64,000 nucleotides of DNA from Abditibacteriota bacterium (GCA_017445025.1 JAFSVJ010000090.1:156-64155), one strand, 5' to 3'. Counted from the stretch's first letter, positions 2,954-63,300 are shown. Translations and numbers: made by a program. Notes: generated by a model from the letters alone, not told the origin.

Positions 2954-4126
2954 ATGAAAAGAATTATACAATTATTAATTTTATTAATCTTATCAACGGT
3001 TGTTTATTCACAACAATTAACAAATGAACAAGTAATTCAAATGGTTAAGGATTATGAGAATAATCAAAATCTATCAAATTTAACAGTTAGTTATATGAAT
3101 GGATATGAATCTAATCCGGGATTTTATCAGGTATGTTTAACAAATTATAGTATTAATCTCAGTAAAACCTGGTTTGTGTATGATAATATTGGAGTAACCA
3201 CTTACATAAATAATCCGGAAATATATATGGGTAATGACTTAGTTAATAATGATTATTCTGAAGGGAATGTTAATTATACAAAAGAACAATGTAAAACCAT
3301 AGGCTTAAATTATTTAAACAATAAAAATATTTCATTAATCGGATGTGTCAATGAACCTATTGTTAGTTGGGAAAACAATGGTTGTTATAAATTTGCTTTT
3401 TATAAATTAATTGATGCTGATTTGGATTTACGATATATTTCTGTTGTTATTTGTGTTAATGCTTTTACAGGAAATATTGCAAGGTGCAAAAAATCATTAA
3501 AACCCATCTTTACCATAGTAAACAGACCAAGTTTGACCATTCCTCAAGTTATTCAAATTGTCCAGCAGAATTTTGATAATATTCAAAGTAATCAAATAAA
3601 AATAAGTAACTATTATATAAATAATACAAATGATTCTATATACAGAGATGCTCATGTTGGAGATTTAGGTGTTGCGGAAATAGACGCTTACACTCATGAA
3701 ATAGTTAAATTTAATGTATACGGAGGTGCTACTATTAATTCAAATAATCCTTCATTTAATAAATTAAAAATAACACCAGCAAAAAGTAGTAATGGCATAA
3801 AAATTTTAACAAAAGAAGATATTGAAAATATGGGTGTAGAAAATAGTAGTATTAATCTCATATTATATAATACAGAAAATCCTAAAGAAATTAAATACAC
3901 AAAATTATCTAATAATTATAAAATTAATAAAGATGATAAAGGCATAGCACGAATGGAAGTAAACGGTAATAAGTTTATATTCCGAAACGGTTCATACTGG
4001 TGTTTTATCAACAATAAAACCTACAATATGGGTGGAAATTGTATAATAGAGAACGGCAAACTCAAACTTCCGGAAGAGTTTTATAAAAAAGTTCAAGATA
4101 AGGATTACCAATTTTTCAAAAAGTAA
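2954..4126 (+). CDS. Hypothetical secreted protein
   Basis: 390-aa ORF with an N-terminal signal-like segment (MKRIIQLLILLILSTVVYSQ). It starts 13 nt after the upstream stop. No family recognised. Confidence 0.6.
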   Translation: MKRIIQLLILLILSTVVYSQQLTNEQVIQMVKDYENNQNLSNLTVSYMNGYESNPGFYQVCLTNYSINLSKTWFVYDNIGVTTYINNPEIYMGNDLVNNDYSEGNVNYTKEQCKTIGLNYLNNKNISLIGCVNEPIVSWENNGCYKFAFYKLIDADLDLRYISVVICVNAFTGNIARCKKSLKPIFTIVNRPSLTIPQVIQIVQQNFDNIQSNQIKISNYYINNTNDSIYRDAHVGDLGVAEIDAYTHEIVKFNVYGGATINSNNPSFNKLKITPAKSSNGIKILTKEDIENMGVENSSINLILYNTENPKEIKYTKLSNNYKINKDDKGIARMEVNGNKFIFRNGSYWCFINNKTYNMGGNCIIENGKLKLPEEFYKKVQDKDYQFFKK

Positions 4127-7102: not shown

Positions 7103-7115
7103 TGAATAATTTCCC

Positions 7116-7530
7116 AAATCACAAATCACAAAATTGTGGTGCTACGCACCACTTATGTTAGTGGGCTCTAAATTTTAAGGCTGGCTATGGTTGATTGACT
7201 TCACCCTCTTTCTCATCCCAAAAAGTGTCGTAAACTCCACTTTTAGGGAACCCTGAGAATTGAACTGAAATTTGCACACAGTTGCAAATTTCCTTTCAAG
7301 GACCCACTCCCAAAAAATCAAAGATTTTTCGGGAACCCTTGGGTCACCCACCCGCCCGGGTTGTATTTTTGATTTGCATGGGACTGCAAATCAAAAAGAG
7401 AGGATTAGCACATACTCAAACTTTTCAGATTCGCAATTTTCCTTTCAAGGACCCATTCGAGCCATAAATTGTGTATTAATTTTGTAATTTGGAAGAGTAG
7501 CCCTTAACTTTAAGGTTGGAGGGTGAATTT
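7116..7530. repeat. Composite mosaic hairpin-repeat cluster in the atpH-atpA spacer
   Basis: It begins AAATCACAAATCACAAA followed by the hairpin GTGGTGC-tac-GCACCAC. The next ~50 nt are nearly identical to 22232..22280. The interior holds reverse-oriented relatives of the 54855..55066 / 62909..63220 unit (GAAATTTGCAcacagTTGCAAATTTCCTTTCAAGGA, CTTCACCCTC). Confidence 0.8.
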
Positions 7531-7541
7531 GGAGTTTTAAG

Positions 7542-15833: not shown

Positions 15834-15897
15834 TCCATCCCCCCCGTCTTGCCTTACGGCAATCCACCCCCCAAACCTTTGGTTTAGGGGGACAGAA
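15834..15897 (+). repeat. Hairpin-repeat module pair in the secA leader
   Basis: The sequence is CCATCCCCCCCGTC-TTGCCttacGGCAA-TCCACCCCCC-AAACCtttGGTTT-AGGGGGACAGA. The same module order is found at 48075..48192 (+) and 22279..22345 (rc). Confidence 0.75.
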
Positions 15898-22173: not shown

Positions 22174-22368
22174 CAAATCACAAAATTAAAATTAATAATC
22201 AAAAATCAAAATTGTGGAGCTATAGCTCCACTTATGTTAGCGAGCTCTAAATTTTAAGGTGGGCTATGGTTAACATTTTGTCCCCCTAACCGTAAGGTTG
22301 GGGGGTGGCAGTCCGTAAGGACTGACGGGGGGATGGAATTTTTGATTTTCTATTTTTGATTATTGATT
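22174..22368. repeat. Compact ~195-bp mosaic repeat element with inverted heptad-array termini
   Basis: The left end is AAATCACAAAATTAAAATTAATAATCAAAAATCAAAATT followed by the hairpin GTGGAGC-tata-GCTCCAC. The core has CCCCCTAACCgtaaGGTTGGGGGG and GGCAGTCCgtaaGGACTGAC. The right end TTTTTGATTTTCTATTTTTGATTATTGATTTT is the inverse of the left array. Confidence 0.8.
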
Positions 22369-23211
22369 TTAAAATACGCTTTCCGCTTTGTATACTTTAT
22401 AATATTCCTTTAGCTTTTCAAAAGCTTTATCTCTTTCACTTTCATCAAAAAATACCCCGAATACACAGGAACCGCTACCGCATAACAAGGCACCTTTTGC
22501 TCCTGCATTAATAAGTGCCATTTTTAAGTCAAAAATATCAAGCTTGTTTAAAATTTCAAAATCATTGGTCATATATGCACAGAGGAGTTCTTTTGTGAGC
22601 TCATTCTTTTCTTGAAGAGATACAATTTTATTGGTGAACCCTTTTGAAACAATGTTTTCTCGCTTGTCCAATTCACTGTAAGCTTCTTTTGTGGAAACAG
22701 TAGAGTCCGGTTTTATTATAATAAAATAGAGTTTAGGCAAACACTGTAATGGTTTTACAATTTCTCCTCTTCCTGTCATAAGGGTTGAGCCACCATATAT
22801 AAATAAGGGGCAGTCGGAGCCTATGGCGGCGGACATTTGGGCAAGGGCTTCTTTTGACAGGTTGGTTTCAAAGATTTCATTTAAAGCAACCAAAACCCCG
22901 GAAGCGTTTCCGCTCCCCCCTCCCAGTCCCGCTTGGGTGGGAATGTTTTTTTCTATATGAATGTTTATGCCTTTGTCAATTTGAAATGTTGACAGGAACA
23001 ATTCACATGCTTTATATACAGTATTTCTCTTGTCTGTGGGGACAGATGGATCTGAACAAGATATATTTATTCTTTCTTTTGTTTCCTCAATATCTATATA
23101 ATCACAGAGAGATAGGGTTTGAACCACACTTTCAAGATTGTGATAACCGTCCTCTCGCTTTACACCAACTTCAAGGGTATAATTAACTTTTGAAAAGGTT
23201 TGGATTCTCAT
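22369..23211 (-). CDS. ispE: 4-diphosphocytidyl-2-C-methyl-D-erythritol kinase
   Basis: 280 aa with the GHMP kinase motif GLGGGSGNASG and N-terminus KVNYTLEV...DGYH. Confidence 0.9.
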   Translation of the reverse strand: MRIQTFSKVNYTLEVGVKREDGYHNLESVVQTLSLCDYIDIEETKERINISCSDPSVPTDKRNTVYKACELFLSTFQIDKGINIHIEKNIPTQAGLGGGSGNASGVLVALNEIFETNLSKEALAQMSAAIGSDCPLFIYGGSTLMTGRGEIVKPLQCLPKLYFIIIKPDSTVSTKEAYSELDKRENIVSKGFTNKIVSLQEKNELTKELLCAYMTNDFEILNKLDIFDLKMALINAGAKGALLCGSGSCVFGVFFDESERDKAFEKLKEYYKVYKAESVF

Positions 23212-24303: not shown

Positions 24304-26064
24304 ATGAAGAAACTTTTTATGCTCATGGTAGCTGTAATCCTTATGGCTGCCCCTGCATTCTCACAGAATGCATTTTCAGACGTTCCTCGTGACCACTGGG
24401 CATACGGTGCTGTCAGTCAATTGGCTGCTGCCGGTATCCTTGAAGGTTATCCCGACGGAACTTTCCAAGGTAAGAGAACCCTTACCAGATACGAATATGC
24501 TATGATTATAGCAAGACTTCTTCCTTTCTTAAGCGACGAAGACATTAATGTTTCCGCTTTTGCCACAAAGAAAGACTTAGACGGCTATGCAAAACTTAGC
24601 GACATCAAAGGTGCTGATTTATCAGGTGTAGCATCAAAGGCTGATCTTGACGCTATTGCAAAACTCGCCAACGAATTCAAAGCAGAACTTGCTGCATTAG
24701 GTGTAGACGTTAACGCTCTTAACGCTGACCTCGCCGCTTTAAGAAGCAGAGTTTCTGCTCTTGAAGACGAGCAAGCAAGAGTTAAGATTACAGGAGAATT
24801 AACTCTCGCAGGTATGTATACCACTACCAAAGACGGTGACTATTTATTGGATTATGACAGAGCGGCGGAAAGAGAAGGATCCCAAGGAACACAATTTATG
24901 AAGGATTTCCAAATCAACGTTAAAGGTAGAGTTAACAGCAATATTAACGCTTACTTAACCCTTGTTGCCGGAGACTACATGAGAAAAAAACAGGAAGGTT
25001 TTGGGGCATGGAAAACCGATGTAAGTCAGTCTGTAGATTCCACTGTTCTCCCTTACTACATGTATGCAACTGTTGACGCAGGAAAGTATGGGGATTTCAA
25101 AATAGGTAGAATGCCTATGCAAATAAATAAATATATCTATTTGAGAGCTGATGCAGATTCCTACATAGATATTGAAAGAACCGATAATGGTGACTACCAA
25201 TTTGGTGGAGTAGATTATAACAAATCTTTCGGTGCTTTTGACATTCGTGCTTGGTTTGGTCAACCTACTCACTCACTGTTTTATGATACCAATATGGAAT
25301 CTGCTTATAATCTTCAAACTCCCATTAAGGATATGGCAGGTATTCAATTGGGCTTTAACATTTCCGAAGCAAGAATCGAAGCTTTGATAAACTACAACGA
25401 AGCTTTTAATGATTTTGAAGGTTGTATTCCTTCTTATGTGACAGGTCTTTCTAAATCTGTTGTATATGGTGGAACTGTAGCAATTCCTTTCGGAAGCTTT
25501 GCTCTTGATGGCGGATACTTTGTTCAAAAGACAAAGAATTTGGACACTGTTTACGGTTACGGTAAGGACAATCCTCATATTGCCGATGCCAATATTTCAT
25601 TTGAAAGCAATGGTTTAACCCTTGGTGTGGGATACTTGGACGTAGAAGCCGGATATAATGCACCCGGTGACTACGAAGGAATGGCTTATGTGGGCAACCC
25701 GGATAATATTAAAGGTTTCAAAGCCAACGCCGCTTACGATTTTGGCAACTTCAATATCTTCGGTGAATACAAACAATACAAAACCAAAGATGACAAATAT
25801 GTTAGCAAATATGAATATGATCTAACCAATGATAAAATAAAGTTTTTATGTGCCGGTATTAATTATAACGCCGGAAATATAGGTGAATTCGGCGCAAAGT
25901 ATGAATCTCTTGACAACCACGGAGATAAATCAAATTATATTACAGTCTCTTGGCTTAAGAATATAGGTAATGCCAATTTCAAAATCGCTTATCAAAATAT
26001 TAATAATAAAGAACTTGAAAACAAGGGTAGCATTATCTACGGTCAAGCAGGATATACATTTTAA
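24304..26064 (+). CDS. Outer-membrane porin with an N-terminal SLH domain, a coiled-coil linker and a C-terminal beta-barrel (OmpM/Som-like)
   Basis: It has a signal peptide, the SLH motif FSDVPRDHWAYGAVSQLAAAGILEGYPDGTFQG and a heptad-rich linker. An alternating-hydrophobic C-terminal region ends ...GQAGYTF. Confidence 0.85.
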   Translation: MKKLFMLMVAVILMAAPAFSQNAFSDVPRDHWAYGAVSQLAAAGILEGYPDGTFQGKRTLTRYEYAMIIARLLPFLSDEDINVSAFATKKDLDGYAKLSDIKGADLSGVASKADLDAIAKLANEFKAELAALGVDVNALNADLAALRSRVSALEDEQARVKITGELTLAGMYTTTKDGDYLLDYDRAAEREGSQGTQFMKDFQINVKGRVNSNINAYLTLVAGDYMRKKQEGFGAWKTDVSQSVDSTVLPYYMYATVDAGKYGDFKIGRMPMQINKYIYLRADADSYIDIERTDNGDYQFGGVDYNKSFGAFDIRAWFGQPTHSLFYDTNMESAYNLQTPIKDMAGIQLGFNISEARIEALINYNEAFNDFEGCIPSYVTGLSKSVVYGGTVAIPFGSFALDGGYFVQKTKNLDTVYGYGKDNPHIADANISFESNGLTLGVGYLDVEAGYNAPGDYEGMAYVGNPDNIKGFKANAAYDFGNFNIFGEYKQYKTKDDKYVSKYEYDLTNDKIKFLCAGINYNAGNIGEFGAKYESLDNHGDKSNYITVSWLKNIGNANFKIAYQNINNKELENKGSIIYGQAGYTF

Positions 26065-26346: not shown

Positions 26347-28107
26347 ATGAAGAAAATTCTTATGCTCATGGTAGCCGTAATCGTTATGGCTGCTCCTGCA
26401 TTCTCACAGAATGCATTTTCCGACGTTCCTCGTGACCACTGGGCATACGGTGCTGTTAGCCAATTAGCTGCTGCCGGTATTCTCGAAGGTTATCCCGACG
26501 GAACATTCCAAGGTAAGAGAACTCTTACCAGATACGAATATGCTATGATCATAGCAAGACTTCTTCCTTTCTTAAGCGACGAAGACATTAATGTTTCCGC
26601 TTTCGCTACAAAGAAAGACTTAGACGGCTATGCAAAACTTAGCGACATCAAAGGTGGCGACTTATCAGGTGTAGCATCAAAGGCTGATCTTGACGCTATT
26701 GCAAAACTCGCCAACGAATTCAAAGCAGAACTTGCTGCATTAGGTGTAGACGTTAACGCTCTTAACGCTGACGTAAACGCTTTAAGAAGCAGAGTTGCCG
26801 CTCTTGAAGACGAGCAAGCAAGAGTTAAGATTACCGGTGAATTAACTGTTGCCGGTAAATACACCATGTCAAAACATGATGACTACTTAGTAGACATTGA
26901 TGACAATCCTTTCAACAGAGACGGTTCTCAAGGAACTGAACTTATTAAGGATTTCCAAATCAACGTTAAGGGTAGAGTTAACAACAATATTAACGCTTAC
27001 TTAACATTGGTTGCCGGTGACTACATGAGAAAGAACATCAGTCCTAAAGAACCAGTTTGGAAAACTGATGTAAGTGAATCTGTAGACTCTACAGTTCTTC
27101 CTTACTACATGTATGCAACAGTTGATTGTGGTAAATACGGTGACTTCACAATTGGTAGACTTCCAATGCAAATCAACAAGTATGTCTACAAGAAATATGA
27201 TGTAGATTCATATGTTGACATAGCAAGAATGGACAATGGTGACTACCAATTCGGTGGTATTGACTACAACAAGAGCTTTGGTGCTGTTGATGTAAGAGCT
27301 TGGTTTGGTCAACCAACCCACAGCGAATACTTTGACATTACTGATTACCAAGCTTACGGTTTAATGACTCCTGTAAAGGACATGGCCGGTTTACAATTAG
27401 GTTTCAACATTGCCGGTGCAAGACTTGAAGCTTTAATGAACTACAACGAAGCTTTCAACGATTTTGAAGGTTGTATTCCTTCCTACGTAACAGGTCTTTC
27501 AAAGTCTGTTATCTATGGTGGAACTTTAGCTGTTCCTATGGGTAGTGTAGCATTAGATGCTGCTTACTTCCAACAAAAGACAAAGAACCTTGATTACTAC
27601 ATGTTCAACGAAAAGGACAAAGCTAACTTGTTAGACGCTAACTTAACATTTAACTGGAATGGTTTAACTGTTAAGGGTGGATACCTTGATGTTCAAGCCG
27701 GTTACGCAGCTCCTGCTGACTACGAACACATGGCTTACGTTCACAACCCTGACAACATCAAAGGTTTCAAAGCTTTCGCAGCTTACGACTTTGGTAACTT
27801 TGACCTCTTTGGAACATACAAGCAATACAAGCAAAAAGATGACAAGTTCTACAAGGGTGACTACGAATACAAAGACAAGATTAAATACTGGAATGCCGGT
27901 TTGAACTACAACTTCGGTAACTTCGGTAAAATCGGTGCAAAATACGAAGAGATTGACAACTACGGTGACAAGTCCAACTACATTACTGTTTCTTGGTTAA
28001 AGAACATTGGAAACGCAAACTTCAAACTTTCTTACCAAGCAATCAACAACAAGGGACTTGACAACAAGGGTAGCATCATCTACGGTCAAGCAGGTTACAC
28101 ATTCTAA
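26347..28107 (+). CDS. SLH-domain outer-membrane porin, tandem paralog
   Basis: Same length (586 aa) and architecture as 24304..26064. The N-terminal ~165 aa are almost identical. The barrel is diverged and rich in C-ending Asn/Tyr/Phe/Ile codons. Confidence 0.85.
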   Translation: MKKILMLMVAVIVMAAPAFSQNAFSDVPRDHWAYGAVSQLAAAGILEGYPDGTFQGKRTLTRYEYAMIIARLLPFLSDEDINVSAFATKKDLDGYAKLSDIKGGDLSGVASKADLDAIAKLANEFKAELAALGVDVNALNADVNALRSRVAALEDEQARVKITGELTVAGKYTMSKHDDYLVDIDDNPFNRDGSQGTELIKDFQINVKGRVNNNINAYLTLVAGDYMRKNISPKEPVWKTDVSESVDSTVLPYYMYATVDCGKYGDFTIGRLPMQINKYVYKKYDVDSYVDIARMDNGDYQFGGIDYNKSFGAVDVRAWFGQPTHSEYFDITDYQAYGLMTPVKDMAGLQLGFNIAGARLEALMNYNEAFNDFEGCIPSYVTGLSKSVIYGGTLAVPMGSVALDAAYFQQKTKNLDYYMFNEKDKANLLDANLTFNWNGLTVKGGYLDVQAGYAAPADYEHMAYVHNPDNIKGFKAFAAYDFGNFDLFGTYKQYKQKDDKFYKGDYEYKDKIKYWNAGLNYNFGNFGKIGAKYEEIDNYGDKSNYITVSWLKNIGNANFKLSYQAINNKGLDNKGSIIYGQAGYTF

Positions 28108-28416: not shown

Positions 28417-28492
28417 GGGGATATAGCTCAGCTGGGAGAGCGCCACACTGGCAGTGTGGAAGTCAGGGGTTCGAGTCCCCTTATCTCCACCA
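28417..28492 (+). tRNA. tRNA-Ala (anticodon GGC), CCA encoded
   Basis: A 76-nt cloverleaf folded by hand. The acceptor stem is GGGGATA/TATCTCC with a G3:U70 pair. The D-loop is AGCTCAGCTGGGAGAGC, the anticodon loop is CT-GGC-AG, and the T-arm is GGGGTTCGAGTCCCC with a 3' ACCA. Confidence 0.93.
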
Positions 28493-31248: not shown

Positions 31249-31588
31249 GCACAATGCACAATGCAAAATGAAAAATGCAAAGTTAAATGCAGAATGCAAA
31301 ATAATTGTGGGGCTTCGCCCCATTTTGATTGGTGGATTCTAAACTTTGTAGTCGCCCTATGAAAATCGCACGCCACCTTTTCCCCATAAAATTCCGTGAA
31401 TTTTGGGGATATGTCAGGCGAAGCCTGACAGGGGGGCATCTCACTAATGCTCATTGTCGCTCTATACAATTAAGACGCCACCATTCCCCCCTTTTTAAGG
31501 GGGGACAAAGGGGGGTATATTATTCATTCTGCATTTTATTATGCATTTTGCATTTTGCATTTTTTATTTAAATTTGCAACGCAAATTT
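31249..31588. repeat. Mosaic hairpin-repeat element with AATGCAA-type heptad termini
   Basis: The left array is GCACAATGCACAATGCAAAATGAAAAATGCAAAG..GCAGAATGCAAAAT followed by the hairpin GTGGGGC-ttc-GCCCCA. The interior has TGTCAGGCgaaGCCTGACA and CCCCCCtttttaaGGGGGG. The right array CATTCTGCATTTTATTATGCATTTTGCATTTTGCAT is the inverse of the left. Confidence 0.75.
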
Positions 31589-46745: not shown

Positions 46746-47735
46746 ATGTCAAAAAAAATTAAAAAAATCGGAGTTCTAACCAGTGGTGGAGACGCTCCCG
46801 GAATGAATGCAGCCATAAGAGGTGTGGTCAGAACAGCTATATCAAATGATGTGGATGTATATGGAATTCATTGGGGATACCAAGGTCTTATGGAAGGGAA
46901 AATCGAACAGATGAACGCTCGAGACGTTAGTGGTTTCGGTTCTCTCGGTGGAACAAAATTGGGTTCTGCCCGTTCTCCGGAATTTAAGACAGAAGAAGGA
47001 ATTAAAAAGGCTATAGAATATTTGAAAGCTTTTGAAATAGAGGGTTTGGTAGTCATAGGCGGTGACGGTTCTTTGAGAGGTGCAATGGATTTGCACAACA
47101 GAGGAATTAAAGTTGTGGGTATTCCCGCATCTATTGATAATGATATTGCTCATACTGATTTTTCAATAGGTTCAGATACGGCTCTTAACACTATTTTGGA
47201 TGCTTTGGACAAGATAAGAGACACTGCTTCAGCACATTACCGTGGTTTTGTTTTGGAAGTTATGGGTAATAAAAACGGATATTTGGCTCTCACTTCAGGA
47301 ACTGCCGGTGGTGCCGAACTTATTATTGTTCCCAGCACGAAAATAGATAAAGATAAGATTATTCATCAAATAAAATCAGCCTTCTTGAGAAAGAAATCTT
47401 CCTTTATTGCTGTATGTGCGGAAGGTGCTTCCACTCCCGAGCAAAATATTTCCGATCTCATTGTCAGCTATATAAAGGAAGCGGGCTTTGAGTGCAGAAA
47501 AACTGTTTTGGGACATGTTCAAAGAGGTGGAAAGCCTACGGGAAGAGACAGAATCTTAGGCAATGCTTTTGGTCATGCAGCTGTAATACAACTCATAAAG
47601 GGTAATTCCGGAATTATGGTTGGAGATGTGGGAAACAATATTGAATGCACTCCCATTCCAAAGGTATGTGAAGATACAAAGAACATAAAACTTCCGAAAG
47701 AAGTATTGGATGTTATAGACGACTTAATGATATGA
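46746..47735 (+). CDS. pfkA: ATP-dependent 6-phosphofructokinase
   Basis: 329 aa with GVLTSGGDAPGMNAAIRG, GGDGS and MG.K.G. Confidence 0.93.
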   Translation: MSKKIKKIGVLTSGGDAPGMNAAIRGVVRTAISNDVDVYGIHWGYQGLMEGKIEQMNARDVSGFGSLGGTKLGSARSPEFKTEEGIKKAIEYLKAFEIEGLVVIGGDGSLRGAMDLHNRGIKVVGIPASIDNDIAHTDFSIGSDTALNTILDALDKIRDTASAHYRGFVLEVMGNKNGYLALTSGTAGGAELIIVPSTKIDKDKIIHQIKSAFLRKKSSFIAVCAEGASTPEQNISDLIVSYIKEAGFECRKTVLGHVQRGGKPTGRDRILGNAFGHAAVIQLIKGNSGIMVGDVGNNIECTPIPKVCEDTKNIKLPKEVLDVIDDLMI

Positions 47736-49096
47736 CGGTTTCTTTTTATACCTTAGGTTGTAAAGTTAATCAATACGAAACGGAAAAAATTAGAGCTCTC
47801 TTTGAACAAGAGGGCTTTATTACTGTGCCGTTTTCTGAAGGTGCGGATATTTGTGTCATTAACACTTGCACTGTCACTGGAGTGGCTGACGGTAAGAGCA
47901 GAGCTGTTATCAGAAAAGCAAAACATATTAATCCGGAGACTTTTGTGGTGGTGACAGGTTGTTATTCCCAAACACACAAAGAAGAAGTTGAGGCTTTAGA
48001 AGAATGTGACCTTGTGGTGGATATTAAAGATAAACTTAAAATACTTTATTATATCAAATCACAAATCACAAATTCCATCCCCCCGTCAGTTTCTAACGAA
48101 ACTGCCACCCGGGTGGGTGGGAGCCCTCAAGGCTCCGAAAAGTCAATAGACTTTTTGGAGAATGGGCAAGCCTATCGGCTTAGGGGGACAGAGGATTCTC
48201 ATGAAACAGAAGGACAAGCTCAAAAAATCACTCTTAGGCAGAGAACTCGGGCGGTTTTGAAAGTTCAAGACGGATGCCACCAATTTTGTTCTTATTGTTT
48301 GATACCTTTTGCAAGAAAAGAGCTTTACAGTGAACCCATAGAAAATGTTATAGAAGAAGTTCAAAACCTTTGTGATAACAATTATAAAGAGATTATTTTG
48401 ACGGGTATTAGACTGGGCTCCTATAATTATGAAGGAAATGACCTTTCCGCTCTCATTAAAATTATTTTAGAAAAAACCTCCATTGAGAAAATCAGGCTCT
48501 CTTCCATAGAAATGTGGGAGATAGATGACAAGCTTTTGGAGTTAATGAGTGACAGAAGGCTCTGTAATCACCTTCACATTCCTTTGCAACAGGGCACAGA
48601 CCAAATACTCAAGCTTATGAACAGACCCTATACTTCAGGGGATTATTTTTCTCTTATTGAAAAAATAAGAAATAAAATTCCCGATATAGGCATAACTACG
48701 GATGTTATTGCCGGGTTCCCTCAGGAAACGGATGAACTCTTTGAACAAAGTTGTGATTTTATCACAAAAGTCGGTTTCTCTCGTTTACATGTCTTTAAGT
48801 ATTCTCGTCGTCCGGGAACCGGTGCGGATAAAATGGAAGGTCAAATTGAGCCCGGGTTAAAAAAAGACAGAGTGAATACTTTGACGGAAATAGGAGAGAA
48901 ATTATCATACTCCTTTGGAAAAAAGCACATAAACAAAGATTGTGAAATGATTTTTGTTCAAAAGAAGAAAGATGGTTTTCTTTATGGCTATACAGATAAT
49001 TATATGGAAGTTATGACAGATAAGCCTTATTCTAAGAATGTTTATATGAAATTGAAACCTAAATCCTTGTCTCAAAAAGGAGTTTTGATTTTATAA
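47732..49096 (+). CDS. mtaB: MiaB-like tRNA methylthiotransferase (MtaB type) carrying an in-frame repeat insertion
   Basis: The N-terminal MTTase domain has VSFYTLGCKVNQYE, VINTCTVT and VVTGCY. The radical-SAM motif is GCHQFCSYC. The start overlaps the pfkA stop (ATGA). Confidence 0.85.
   Translation: MTVSFYTLGCKVNQYETEKIRALFEQEGFITVPFSEGADICVINTCTVTGVADGKSRAVIRKAKHINPETFVVVTGCYSQTHKEEVEALEECDLVVDIKDKLKILYYIKSQITNSIPPSVSNETATRVGGSPQGSEKSIDFLENGQAYRLRGTEDSHETEGQAQKITLRQRTRAVLKVQDGCHQFCSYCLIPFARKELYSEPIENVIEEVQNLCDNNYKEIILTGIRLGSYNYEGNDLSALIKIILEKTSIEKIRLSSIEMWEIDDKLLELMSDRRLCNHLHIPLQQGTDQILKLMNRPYTSGDYFSLIEKIRNKIPDIGITTDVIAGFPQETDELFEQSCDFITKVGFSRLHVFKYSRRPGTGADKMEGQIEPGLKKDRVNTLTEIGEKLSYSFGKKHINKDCEMIFVQKKKDGFLYGYTDNYMEVMTDKPYSKNVYMKLKPKSLSQKGVLIL
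48054..48195 (+). repeat. Mosaic hairpin repeat embedded in-frame in mtaB
   Basis: The sequence is AAATCACAAATCACAAA + CCATCCCCCCGTCAGTttctaacgaaACTGCCACCCGGGTGG + GGAGCCctcaaGGCTCC + AAAAGTCaataGACTTTTTGG + AAGCCtatcGGCTT + AGGGGGACAGAGG. The modules are shared with 15834..15897, 22279..22345 (rc) and 54983..55010. Confidence 0.8.
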
Positions 49097-49260
49097 AGCA
49101 ATAGGCTTATGGTTTATTTTGCATTCTTCATTTTGCATGGTCCCTTTTATCTCGCAAGTGAGGGAATGCAAAAGGGAGAATAGGCTTTTTGCAGTAATGG
49201 AGCCTTTATTATTAGCGGAGAAAGGTGCCCCCTTGTGGGGGCATTTTGTTATTATGTTGA
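49097..49260. repeat. Hairpin-repeat modules downstream of mtaB
   Basis: TTTTGCATTCTTCATTTTGCAT is the inverse of the AATGCAA heptads at 31249. CCCTTTTATCTCGCAAGTGAGGGAATGCAAAAGGGAG is nearly the same as 63243..63277. GGTGCCCCCttgtGGGGGCAT is also present. Confidence 0.65.
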
Positions 49261-54782: not shown

Positions 54783-55075
54783 AGATTTTAAAATCACAAA
54801 AACCCATCTCAAAAAAGTTTCGTTACGCAAGAGCTTTTTAGGGTGAGTCTGACAACTTAGGTGTTGGCTTAAATTATTAGGCTTCTATCGTAAAATTTGC
54901 AGTTTTGCAAATTTTACTCCTGACCACCCACCACAATGGCTAACGCCTTGTGGTCCCCCCTCCTTCCAAATCCCTAAAAGTTTCGCTATTCGCTCAACTT
55001 TTTGGAAACCCTTGGATGAAAGGAATTTGCGGTTGCAAATTCAGTTCAAAGAGGGTGAAGTAGGTTTGCTAATAA
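54783..55075 (+). repeat. Mosaic repeat cluster containing one full copy (with a nested insertion) of the ~155-bp structured unit
   Basis: 54855..55066 reads TTAGGTGTTGGCTTAAATTATTAGGCTTCTATCGTAAAATTTGCAgtttTGCAAATTTTACTCCTGACCACCCACC...GGTCCCCCCTCCTT..[AAAAGT hairpin insert]..GAATTTGCggtTGCAAATTCAGTTCAAAGAGGGTGAAG. It is in the same orientation as 62909..63220. Confidence 0.8.
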
Positions 55076-62823: not shown

Positions 62824-63300
62824 GATCAAAAATGGAAAATCAAAAATCAAAAGAGAAAAATAAACGATAAGCTTTAGGCTTGTCATATCTATATCCCTCC
62901 GTTGCCCCCGGGTTGTTAGTTTAGGTTATTAGGCTTCTATCATAAATTTGCAATTCTATGCAAATTTATTCCTGACCACCCCCGGCTTCGCCGGTCCCCC
63001 CTCCTTGAAAGGAAAATTGCGGATGCAATTTTCAGTTCAAAGAGGATGAATCTATTAACTTGGGTTGTTGGCTTAAATTGTTAGGCTTCTATCGTAAATT
63101 TGCAATTCTATGCAAATTTACTCCTGACCACCCACCATTCGCTTTGCGAATGGTCCCCCCTCCTTGAACGAAAAATTGCGGATGCAATTTTTACTTCAAG
63201 GAGGGTGAATCTATCAACTTAGGCTTTTTGCCGCAACAGAGCCTTTACCTCGCAAAGCGAGGGAATGCAAAAGGGGAGATAAACGATAAGTGTAATTATG
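62824..63300 (+). repeat. Mosaic repeat cluster with two tandem copies of the ~155-bp structured unit
   Basis: Heptads (AAAATCAAAAATCAAAA) come first, then unit A 62909..63061 and unit B 63062..63220, which are collinear and highly similar by eye. These are followed by the CCTCGCAAAGCGAGGGAATGCAAAAGGGGAG module. ATAAACGATAAG occurs at both 62860..62871 and 63279..63290. Confidence 0.85.

Follow-up and report, generated by a model that had tools for sequence, protein, structure and literature searches.

Rickettsia genomes contain Rickettsia palindromic elements (RPEs), which are palindromic repeats that lie in frame and free of stop codons in housekeeping genes (Ogata et al. 2000 Science 290:347, as recounted in PMC10969869). 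Intragenic in-frame copies are also known for miniature transposable elements with inverted repeats (MITEs), such as QMITE1 and QMITE2 of Coxiella (PMC5896051), and intragenic ERIC and Anabaena MITEs are cited in PMC10969869. In enterobacteria, repetitive extragenic palindromic (REP) sequences form bacterial interspersed mosaic elements (BIMEs) and also REPINs with RAYT transposases (PMC3116915, PMC3184786). Here, we analyzed a 64,000-nucleotide stretch of DNA from an Abditibacteriota bacterium (JAFSVJ010000090.1:156-64155 of assembly GCA_017445025.1), hereafter the window, in which the methylthiotransferase (MTTase) gene mtaB carries in its interdomain linker a copy of a dispersed hairpin repeat, termed family A. 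It is probable, in our judgement, that this MITE/REP-like copy is a tolerated, in-frame passenger of the gene. Cyanobacteria reportedly harbor STRR heptamer repeats as well as small dispersed repeats (SDRs) of 21–27 nt, and these are said to be very small hairpin repeats that lie beside or in heptamer arrays, nest in repeats and occasionally insert into coding sequence.

Family A shares several features with the RPEs as that review presents them: both are short, palindromic, hairpin-forming and dispersed, both occur between genes as well as in frame inside unrelated housekeeping genes, and in both the insert is a fold-compatible surface segment and is treated as selfish DNA filtered by selection. 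The likeness is functional only, the hosts being Rickettsiales in one case and an Abditibacteriota/Armatimonadota-like lineage in the other. Family A measures ~60 or 120 bp against roughly 100–150 bp for RPEs, and unlike them it has invariant C6/G5 linkers, freely varying Watson-Crick hairpins, nesting and heptad arrays; its coding copies are a minority (2 of ~36 seen), whereas RPEs are reported to be frequently coding. A first-pass annotation of the window had described the mtaB insert as an RPE-like coding insertion of a different-looking family, and this agrees with what was found, since the in-frame RPE/MITE phenomenon is known and the repeat has no Rfam match. With MITEs, family A has in common that it is small, with terminal inverted repeats that are imperfect, a large number of copies, absence of transposase coding, strong structure and occasional in-frame fusions with open reading frames (ORFs), but neither a target-site duplication nor a parental insertion sequence was identified in the 64 kb and the short contigs, and its hairpin interiors are far more variable than those of a typical MITE family while its linkers are nearly invariant. 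Like REP/BIME sequences, it consists of short GC-rich palindromes that lie mainly outside genes, in either orientation, and form mosaic clusters with other motifs, and its lower strand, read from sequence only, has GTGG followed by the palindrome, comparable to the GT[AG]G head of REPs. However, it is found in genes too, its unit of two hairpins joined by C/G-run linkers differs from the REP consensus, and the available DNA showed no RAYT gene. The STRR and SDR repeats reportedly differ in phylum and sequence, and the SDRs in size from the 60–120 nt composite of family A. The behavior of in-frame palindromic insertion is known; what is new is family A itself, the lineage that hosts it and the rule by which perfect hairpins vary while the linkers stay invariant.

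Layout of the insert and its repeat family

The host gene was assigned to mtaB by the TIGR01579 equivalog model, with 426.2 bits against a cut-off of 357.05, and its product contains the Pfam domains UPF0004 (PF00919, residues 3–96) and Radical_SAM (PF04055, residues 177–344). Its catalytic motifs are intact, with the N-terminal cluster cysteines C10, C46 and C77 and the radical-SAM cysteines C182xxxC186xxC189 lying in columns that are invariant in the MtaB alignments A1 and A3 (13 best homologs, later 76). The PDB structure of MiaB, 7MJZ, aligns with MtaB residues 6–98 and 176–431, but not between them. The features of the gene and of the insert are as follows.

47732 to 49096, + strand: mtaB ORF (454 aa), host gene of the insert, from its TIGR01579 match and two domains
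48056 to 48069, + strand: AAATCAC heptad pair, then AAATT; exact match, abutting the 5′ end of the element
48073 to 48192, + strand: family A repeat, long form, 120 nt or 40 codons (residues 114–154), from covariance model, BLASTN and fold
48073 to 48207, + strand: 135-nt block of 45 codons without homology to the mtaB of contig L001, from BLASTN of the window against L001 and protein alignment
48075 to 48084, + strand: 5′ arm of the mtaB copy, CCATCCCCCC, then GTC
48087 to 48104, + strand: hairpin 1, then CCACCC (48105–48110), then the nested module
48107 to 48166, + strand: nested module E (ACCCGGGTGGGTGGG..CCGAAAAGTC-loop-GACTTTTTGGAG..TGGG), in the second C-run of family A, from BLASTN
48168 to 48181, + strand: hairpin 2, then the 3′ arm AGGGGGAC (48182–48189)

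The order at 48075–48192 is accordingly CCATCCCCCC-GTC-hairpin-CCACCC ... hairpin-TTAGGGGGACAG, and the heptads at 48056–48069 are read within the protein as ..KSQITN... The first-pass annotation had placed the heptad pair at the start of the insert, had claimed this module order and had pointed to two non-coding copies in the window, all of which were recovered. Its five hairpins in the same order as in the non-coding copies held good for the order, but ordinary copies have two hairpins, and the mtaB copy is a long form with a nested module. The segment 54983–55010, which it had offered as a counterpart of the nested module, shares a 10-mer only and gave no match at E ≤ 1, and its estimate of 45–65 extra residues came down to a measured excess of 44 residues (135 nt, 48073–48207).

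A covariance model (R1) was built from 30 copies of family A, with the mtaB copy left out, and it matched 48070–48194 over its full length (model positions 1–68) with 44.4 bits and an E value of 2e-8; true short copies score 60–89 bits and chance pattern matches 11–26 bits. BLASTN of the 142-nt segment 48054–48195 gave 127 columns with 80% identity to positions 258–378 of contig L013 (E 4e-22), an intergenic copy lying after a stop codon and before a promoter-like TTGACA..TATAAT. Since the L013 copy has the same extra interior, the 120-nt long form represents a subfamily rather than a peculiarity of mtaB. The two non-coding copies in the window are short forms:

15835 to 15893, + strand: non-coding family A copy in the secA 5′ leader, right after a promoter-like TATAAT; 66.9 bits with R1
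22280 to 22336, − strand: non-coding family A copy between convergent genes, downstream of ispE, then a further repeat, module X; 86.5 bits with R1

The 5′ 28 nt of the copy at 22280–22336 are 96% identical to the mtaB copy. The similarity to non-coding copies, which the first-pass annotation had left to a proper search, is highly significant with both BLASTN and R1, and sequence comparison confirms 48073–48192 as a real copy of the dispersed repeat family A.

The closest other copies differ from the mtaB copy, which is identical to none of those seen. This bears on an assembly artefact, in which a chimeric join at the repeat was made or reads of an intergenic copy were collapsed into mtaB. 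Such an error would be in keeping with family A repeats being found at the ends of contigs and at a possible chimera (L030 against L004), but it would have to yield a copy matching no other, between flanks that are both colinear with mtaB and 85–91% identical to the L001 gene, with the frame kept. An identical mtaB gene is also present on a second assembled contig, L003 (15.6 kb), which argues against an artefact, and we regard this explanation as extremely improbable.

Orthologous linkers and presumed translation of the insert

The linker between ..DIKDKLKIL and TLRQRTRAV is 61 residues long in the window MtaB and ~17 in the orthologs P0003–P0008 (57–69% identity, 408–414 aa), giving an excess of 44 residues; the extra linker is absent from all of these orthologs, in line with the expectation of the first-pass annotation. 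The genome of one of these orthologs, L002, has related repeat pieces just past the mtaB stop, yet its linker is uninterrupted. The closest relative is L001, whose MtaB is 84% identical in the alignment. BLASTN homology between the window and L001 ends at 48072 / 3118, the base before the element, and resumes at 48208 / 3185, and the flanks of the block are colinear with the L001 gene (85–91% identical). At this junction, the window has 135 nt (45 codons) against 66 unrelated nt (22 codons) in L001, where 3100–3184 reads (AGCAGAA)n-AAATT-GACGG-TCCCCCC-ACCGTAGTA-GGGGGGGA.., namely heptads in an array, the left flank that is usual for family A (AGCAGAAATT) and then a minimal C6-loop-G7 hairpin, in frame. 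The L001 hairpin resembles a recurrent module, CCCCCC-TAACGCAGTA-GGGGGG, on L005, L015 and L017. These sequences would fit either one old insertion that was remodelled or a site that was struck twice.

The junction also gives room for the possibility that the mtaB linker is a hot spot, in which a heptad microsatellite came first and modules were then added, exchanged or deleted by recombination, gene conversion or template switching; the long form of the window and the minimal C6-loop-G7 hairpin of L001 would be two states of one ancient unstable site. The loss of homology between the two at an identical junction, directly after (heptad)n-AAAT, would be expected then, as would the retention in L001 of the left flank AGCAGAAATT and a C6...G7 stem with an interior of 9 nt only, and it would also suit the way in which variants of hairpin 1 and hairpin 2 reassort freely, the hybrid hairpin 1 of L015, the nesting of modules, and the L030 and L004 contigs, whose common sequence begins at the element and runs rightwards. 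However, the full-length colinearity with the intergenic long form of L013 fits a unit copied as a whole better than one put together piece by piece, and with two lineages only at the site, independent insertions are indistinguishable from remodelling. We consider a hot spot possible but doubtful and prefer a family A copy that mtaB has tolerated.

Among the six frames of 48070–48194, only frame +1 is open; it is the mtaB frame and contains no stop, as the first-pass annotation had stated, and the length of the block at mtaB is a multiple of three. The gene stayed intact because the insert combines a length that is a multiple of three with a sole open frame in register. The AlphaFold2 model of MtaB (77 sequences) has a mean predicted local distance difference test (pLDDT) score of 90.5 and a predicted template modelling (pTM) score of 0.86, with pLDDT >90 in 385 of the 454 residues; the sole segment with pLDDT <50, residues 120–160, lies in the insert and is modelled as coil between the helix 98–115 and the first radical-SAM strand 173–180. 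The model shows the insert as disordered, and it is predicted to form a surface loop between the MTTase and radical-SAM domains, which is where the first-pass annotation had suspected such a loop. From the translated sequence, the insert peptides expected from trypsin are SQITNSIPPSVSNETATR, VGGSPQGSEK and SIDFLENGQAYR. When 1.84 billion representative proteins were searched by phmmer with the insert peptide (47 residues), four weak matches to long repetitive proteins were returned (best E 3e-5) and no further coding cases were found, though insert-bearing proteins may hide behind insert-free cluster representatives.

The first-pass annotation had left it open whether the host tolerates or uses the extra peptide; tolerance is supported, and use is without support. 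If the insert were co-opted, it could provide a new interaction surface, or an mRNA structure that slows ribosomes between the domains or regulates expression. The segment 48070–48195 folds at −61.9 kcal/mol, with z scores of −5.6 (+ strand) and −7.25 (− strand), so that a very stable mRNA structure would lie exactly at the domain boundary; family A copies occur in two related methylthiotransferases, MtaB and RimO, and L001 also retains an in-frame insert at the mtaB junction. Yet the peptide is predicted to be disordered and is not conserved even in L001, where the sequence is different and shorter, the phmmer matches were only the four weak repetitive ones, and the rimO insert is located at a different position of the fold and uses a different frame of the element. 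Co-option is thus judged to be improbable.

The folding also raises the question of whether the segment escapes translation, through bypassing by the ribosome, as in T4 gene 60 or the "byp" GC elements of yeast mitochondria, or through excision from the mRNA. The insert is GC-rich and folds strongly while the gene around it is AT-rich, which would give it a superficial resemblance to mitochondrial byps. However, length and frame are kept without a stop in three coding insertions (mtaB of the window, mtaB of L001 and rimO of L004), which would be needless if the segment were skipped; no stop follows a take-off codon in this 45-codon in-frame insert, unlike in bypassing, and no intron or ribozyme family matched. 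Non-translation appears highly implausible, and a translated, tolerated insert remains the preferred reading.

Structure, distribution and a second coding copy of family A

The short form of family A is ~60 bp long and reads AAATT-CCATCCCCCC-GTC-[hairpin 1]-(G/T)CCACCCCCC-AA-[hairpin 2]-TT-AGGGGGAC-AGA(A/T)T, with two variable hairpins amid invariant C-run/G-run linkers. Its ends, AAATTCCATCCCCCC and the reverse complement of GGGGGACAGATTT, form imperfect short inverted repeats with ATTC..TCCCCC in common (alignment A2), and the predicted fold pairs both ends, in the manner of MITE terminal inverted repeats. The flanks are AAATT or GAATT on the left and AGATT, AGAAT or AAATT on the right, and may be parts of the inverted ends rather than a duplication. 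Tandem heptads (AAATCAC, AGCAGAA, TGCATTR and GTGATTT) lie next to many copies, on either side. Hairpin 1 and hairpin 2 variants are combined in many ways, and the hairpin 1 of L015 is a hybrid; the copies therefore exchange parts.

In the model-guided alignment A4 of 34 copies, 99.1% of the 469 stem cells are standard Watson-Crick pairs. Double changes were observed in 84 stem cells against 25±4 in shuffles, with none of 500 shuffles reaching 84, and shifting the 3′ partners by 1–3 columns lowers pairing to 31–60%. No one-sided (G·U-type) change or G·T pair was found in the 469 stem cells, though the stems differ at almost every position; this is not the usual picture of compensatory evolution, and it suggests copying of one arm from its partner. 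The copies are located in both orientations relative to neighboring genes, nearly all of them intergenic. The strictly Watson-Crick stems together with this strand-independent placement argue that family A is a DNA-level palindromic repeat and not a functional RNA. The Rfam scan of the window at gathering scores gave one tRNA only and none for family A, and an E-value scan of 47950–48300 gave nothing below E 0.9. The lack of an Rfam match, the two orientations and the zero G·U-type changes speak against a structured cis-regulatory or small RNA.

A pattern scan of metagenome contigs yielded 32 loci, comprising 25 low-GC contigs and 7 chance matches in GC-rich DNA. The 25 low-GC contigs carry 28 clearly homologous copies, and with the window the total comes to ~36, 2 of which are coding. 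The same scan of 185,579 GTDB species genomes gave 6 matches, in GC-rich genomes and all due to chance by covariance-model score; viral contigs gave 0 matches, and none was found in 23 kb around secA of L045 (74% SecA identity) or of L046, an Abditibacteriota metagenome-assembled genome (MAG). On these scans, family A is phylogenetically narrow. By SecA, the nearest MAG is labelled Abditibacteriota (70%), followed by Armatimonadota (58–60%), and this protein comparison makes the host a low-GC, uncultured bacterium related to Abditibacteriota/Armatimonadota. In the secA leader, the copy (15835–15893) follows a conserved TGGTATAATATATATAGGTGTAT; L043 and L044, with SecA proteins 85–87% identical, lack it at the orthologous site. 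Between the window and L001, coding DNA is 76–91% identical, and intergenic modules are present or absent. Family A therefore has many dispersed copies with presence and absence at orthologous sites, as MITEs do.

The second coding copy is a short form at 1421–1491 of contig L004, which lies in frame in a 463-residue ORF (175–1566), in the C-terminal TRAM region of RimO. The ORF matches RimO of T. maritima (4JC0) with E 2e-83, and the match stops at residue 415, exactly at the element start. The protein ends in ..IIKIKAE[IPSPRHFLRKCHPPQSKIVGGQKE]LLGNIITVQVTEADAYDLEGKLI before the stop codon, a typical TRAM-domain tail. In rimO, the element is read in another frame than in mtaB, and it lies elsewhere in the fold. 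Positions 1–800 of L030 and 624–1420 of L004 are 95.9% identical only from the element rightwards, the left side being the 3′ end of the glycyl-tRNA synthetase gene against the rimO body, and this break reflects either recombination at the element or chimeric assembly at the repeat. A candidate coding insertion in ispE was rejected: the GC island at 22885–22949 encodes the conserved GHMP-kinase motif ..AGLGGGSGNA...

Origin of the insert and companion modules

In the reading that we prefer, family A would be a small, non-autonomous, hairpin-rich DNA repeat of a narrow uncultured low-GC clade, whose long form with nested module E would have entered the interdomain linker of mtaB or been remodelled there. 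With the frame kept, the insert would be read through as ~44 extra residues in a disordered surface loop, and selection would have removed every insertion that broke frame or fold, with this one left as a passenger. The insert is most likely tolerated in this way and presumably neutral. We infer that the insert peptide is actually produced, and likewise how the element moves, from the DNA alone. Several points weigh against this reading. The different module at the identical L001 junction indicates that a single simple insertion may not be the full history, and in the nearest insert-free ortholog, the empty site has diverged too far for a target-site duplication to be defined. A Pfam scan of ten small ORFs in the window found no transposase, all being housekeeping or of unknown function, and the available DNA of the lineage showed no RAYT gene. 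Both gene-internal copies lie in paralogous methylthiotransferases, an unlikely coincidence if insertion were purely random. The copies were drawn from the 64-kb window and short contigs of the lineage rather than from a whole genome.

An unlikely but more far-reaching possibility is that family A, modules E and X, the C6-loop-G6 hairpins and the heptad arrays together form a previously unseen nested hairpin-DNA system, with hairpin-templated writing on single-stranded DNA. If this were true, new hairpins would enter the C/G-run junctions or loops of older ones as well as heptad microsatellites, which would explain the copy-specific Watson-Crick stems, the reassortment of variants, the nesting and a mtaB junction remodelled in two lineages; the presence in two paralogous methylthiotransferases would be targeting and not chance.

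As a tolerated passenger, the mtaB copy would extend Rickettsia-type selfish palindromic DNA in essential genes to an uncultured relative of Abditibacteriota/Armatimonadota, with in-frame cases seen three times independently (the mtaB linker in two states, and rimO). Family A and its covariance model might be used to bin or join fragmented contigs of the lineage, and to study the origin and movement of hairpin repeats whose linkers are invariant and whose perfect stems change freely. For annotation, such inserts lengthen linkers and may pass for novel domains.

The nested module E was also found free-standing in the window:

7303 to 7361, − strand: free-standing module E in a mosaic intergenic region upstream of atpA

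By BLASTN, module E of mtaB matches this copy (7361–7303) at 77% (E 8e-6), L013 342–281 at 84% (E 8e-12), which lies inside the L013 family A copy, and L006 333–400 at 71% (E 4e-4). The region upstream of atpA (7105–7540) is a mosaic of AAATCAC heptads, module X, pieces like a further repeat, family B, and module E; its module X reads GTGGTGC-loop-GCACCAC..TAAATTTTAAGGCTGGCTATGG. Module X (ACCATAGCCAGCCTTAAAATTTAGAGCCC..hairpin..AATTTT with heptads) also occurs at 22190–22270 on the − strand of the window and in the flanks of L007, L025, L029, L032 and L034, and its recurrence directly 3′ of many family A copies suggests larger composite units. Tandem half elements (TCCATCCCCCCGTCTTGCC-loop-GGCACCGAAATG), with the 5′ arm and hairpin 1 only, were seen at L002 2335–2412 and L018 1244–1283, those of L002 sitting right after the stop codon of the insert-free mtaB. 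At 31483–31560, a ATTCCCCCC-TTTTTAA-GGGGGGACAAAGGGGGG hairpin followed by a GCATTTT heptad run resembles the outer stem of family A in a minimal state, with nothing inside it.

Family B, which is a different repeat, was located at 54900–55060, 62925–63050 and 63085–63210, two copies being in tandem, and reads ..TGCAAATTTAYTCCTGACCACCC-hairpin-GGTCCCCCCTCCTTGAA..AAATTGCGGATGCAATTTT..TTCAARGAGG. The copy at 54900 has an additional nested AAAAGTT..AACTTTTTGG hairpin, and the CCTCCTTGAA/TTCAAGGAGG arms could, judging by their sequence, mask a Shine-Dalgarno-like sequence. A short module, CTCGCAARYGAGGGAATGCAAAAGGGAGA, is common to 49140–49180 and 63250–63285.

The neighbors of mtaB are housekeeping genes, with pfkA upstream and a P-type ATPase gene, a pseudouridine synthase gene and recJ downstream; L001 lacks a counterpart of the block at 49097–49225, which directly follows the mtaB stop. 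Elsewhere in the window, 24304–26064 and 26347–28107 are tandem, near-identical genes of 586 residues with N-terminal SLH domains, indicating a recent duplication, and the tRNA at 28417–28489 is the single Rfam match.

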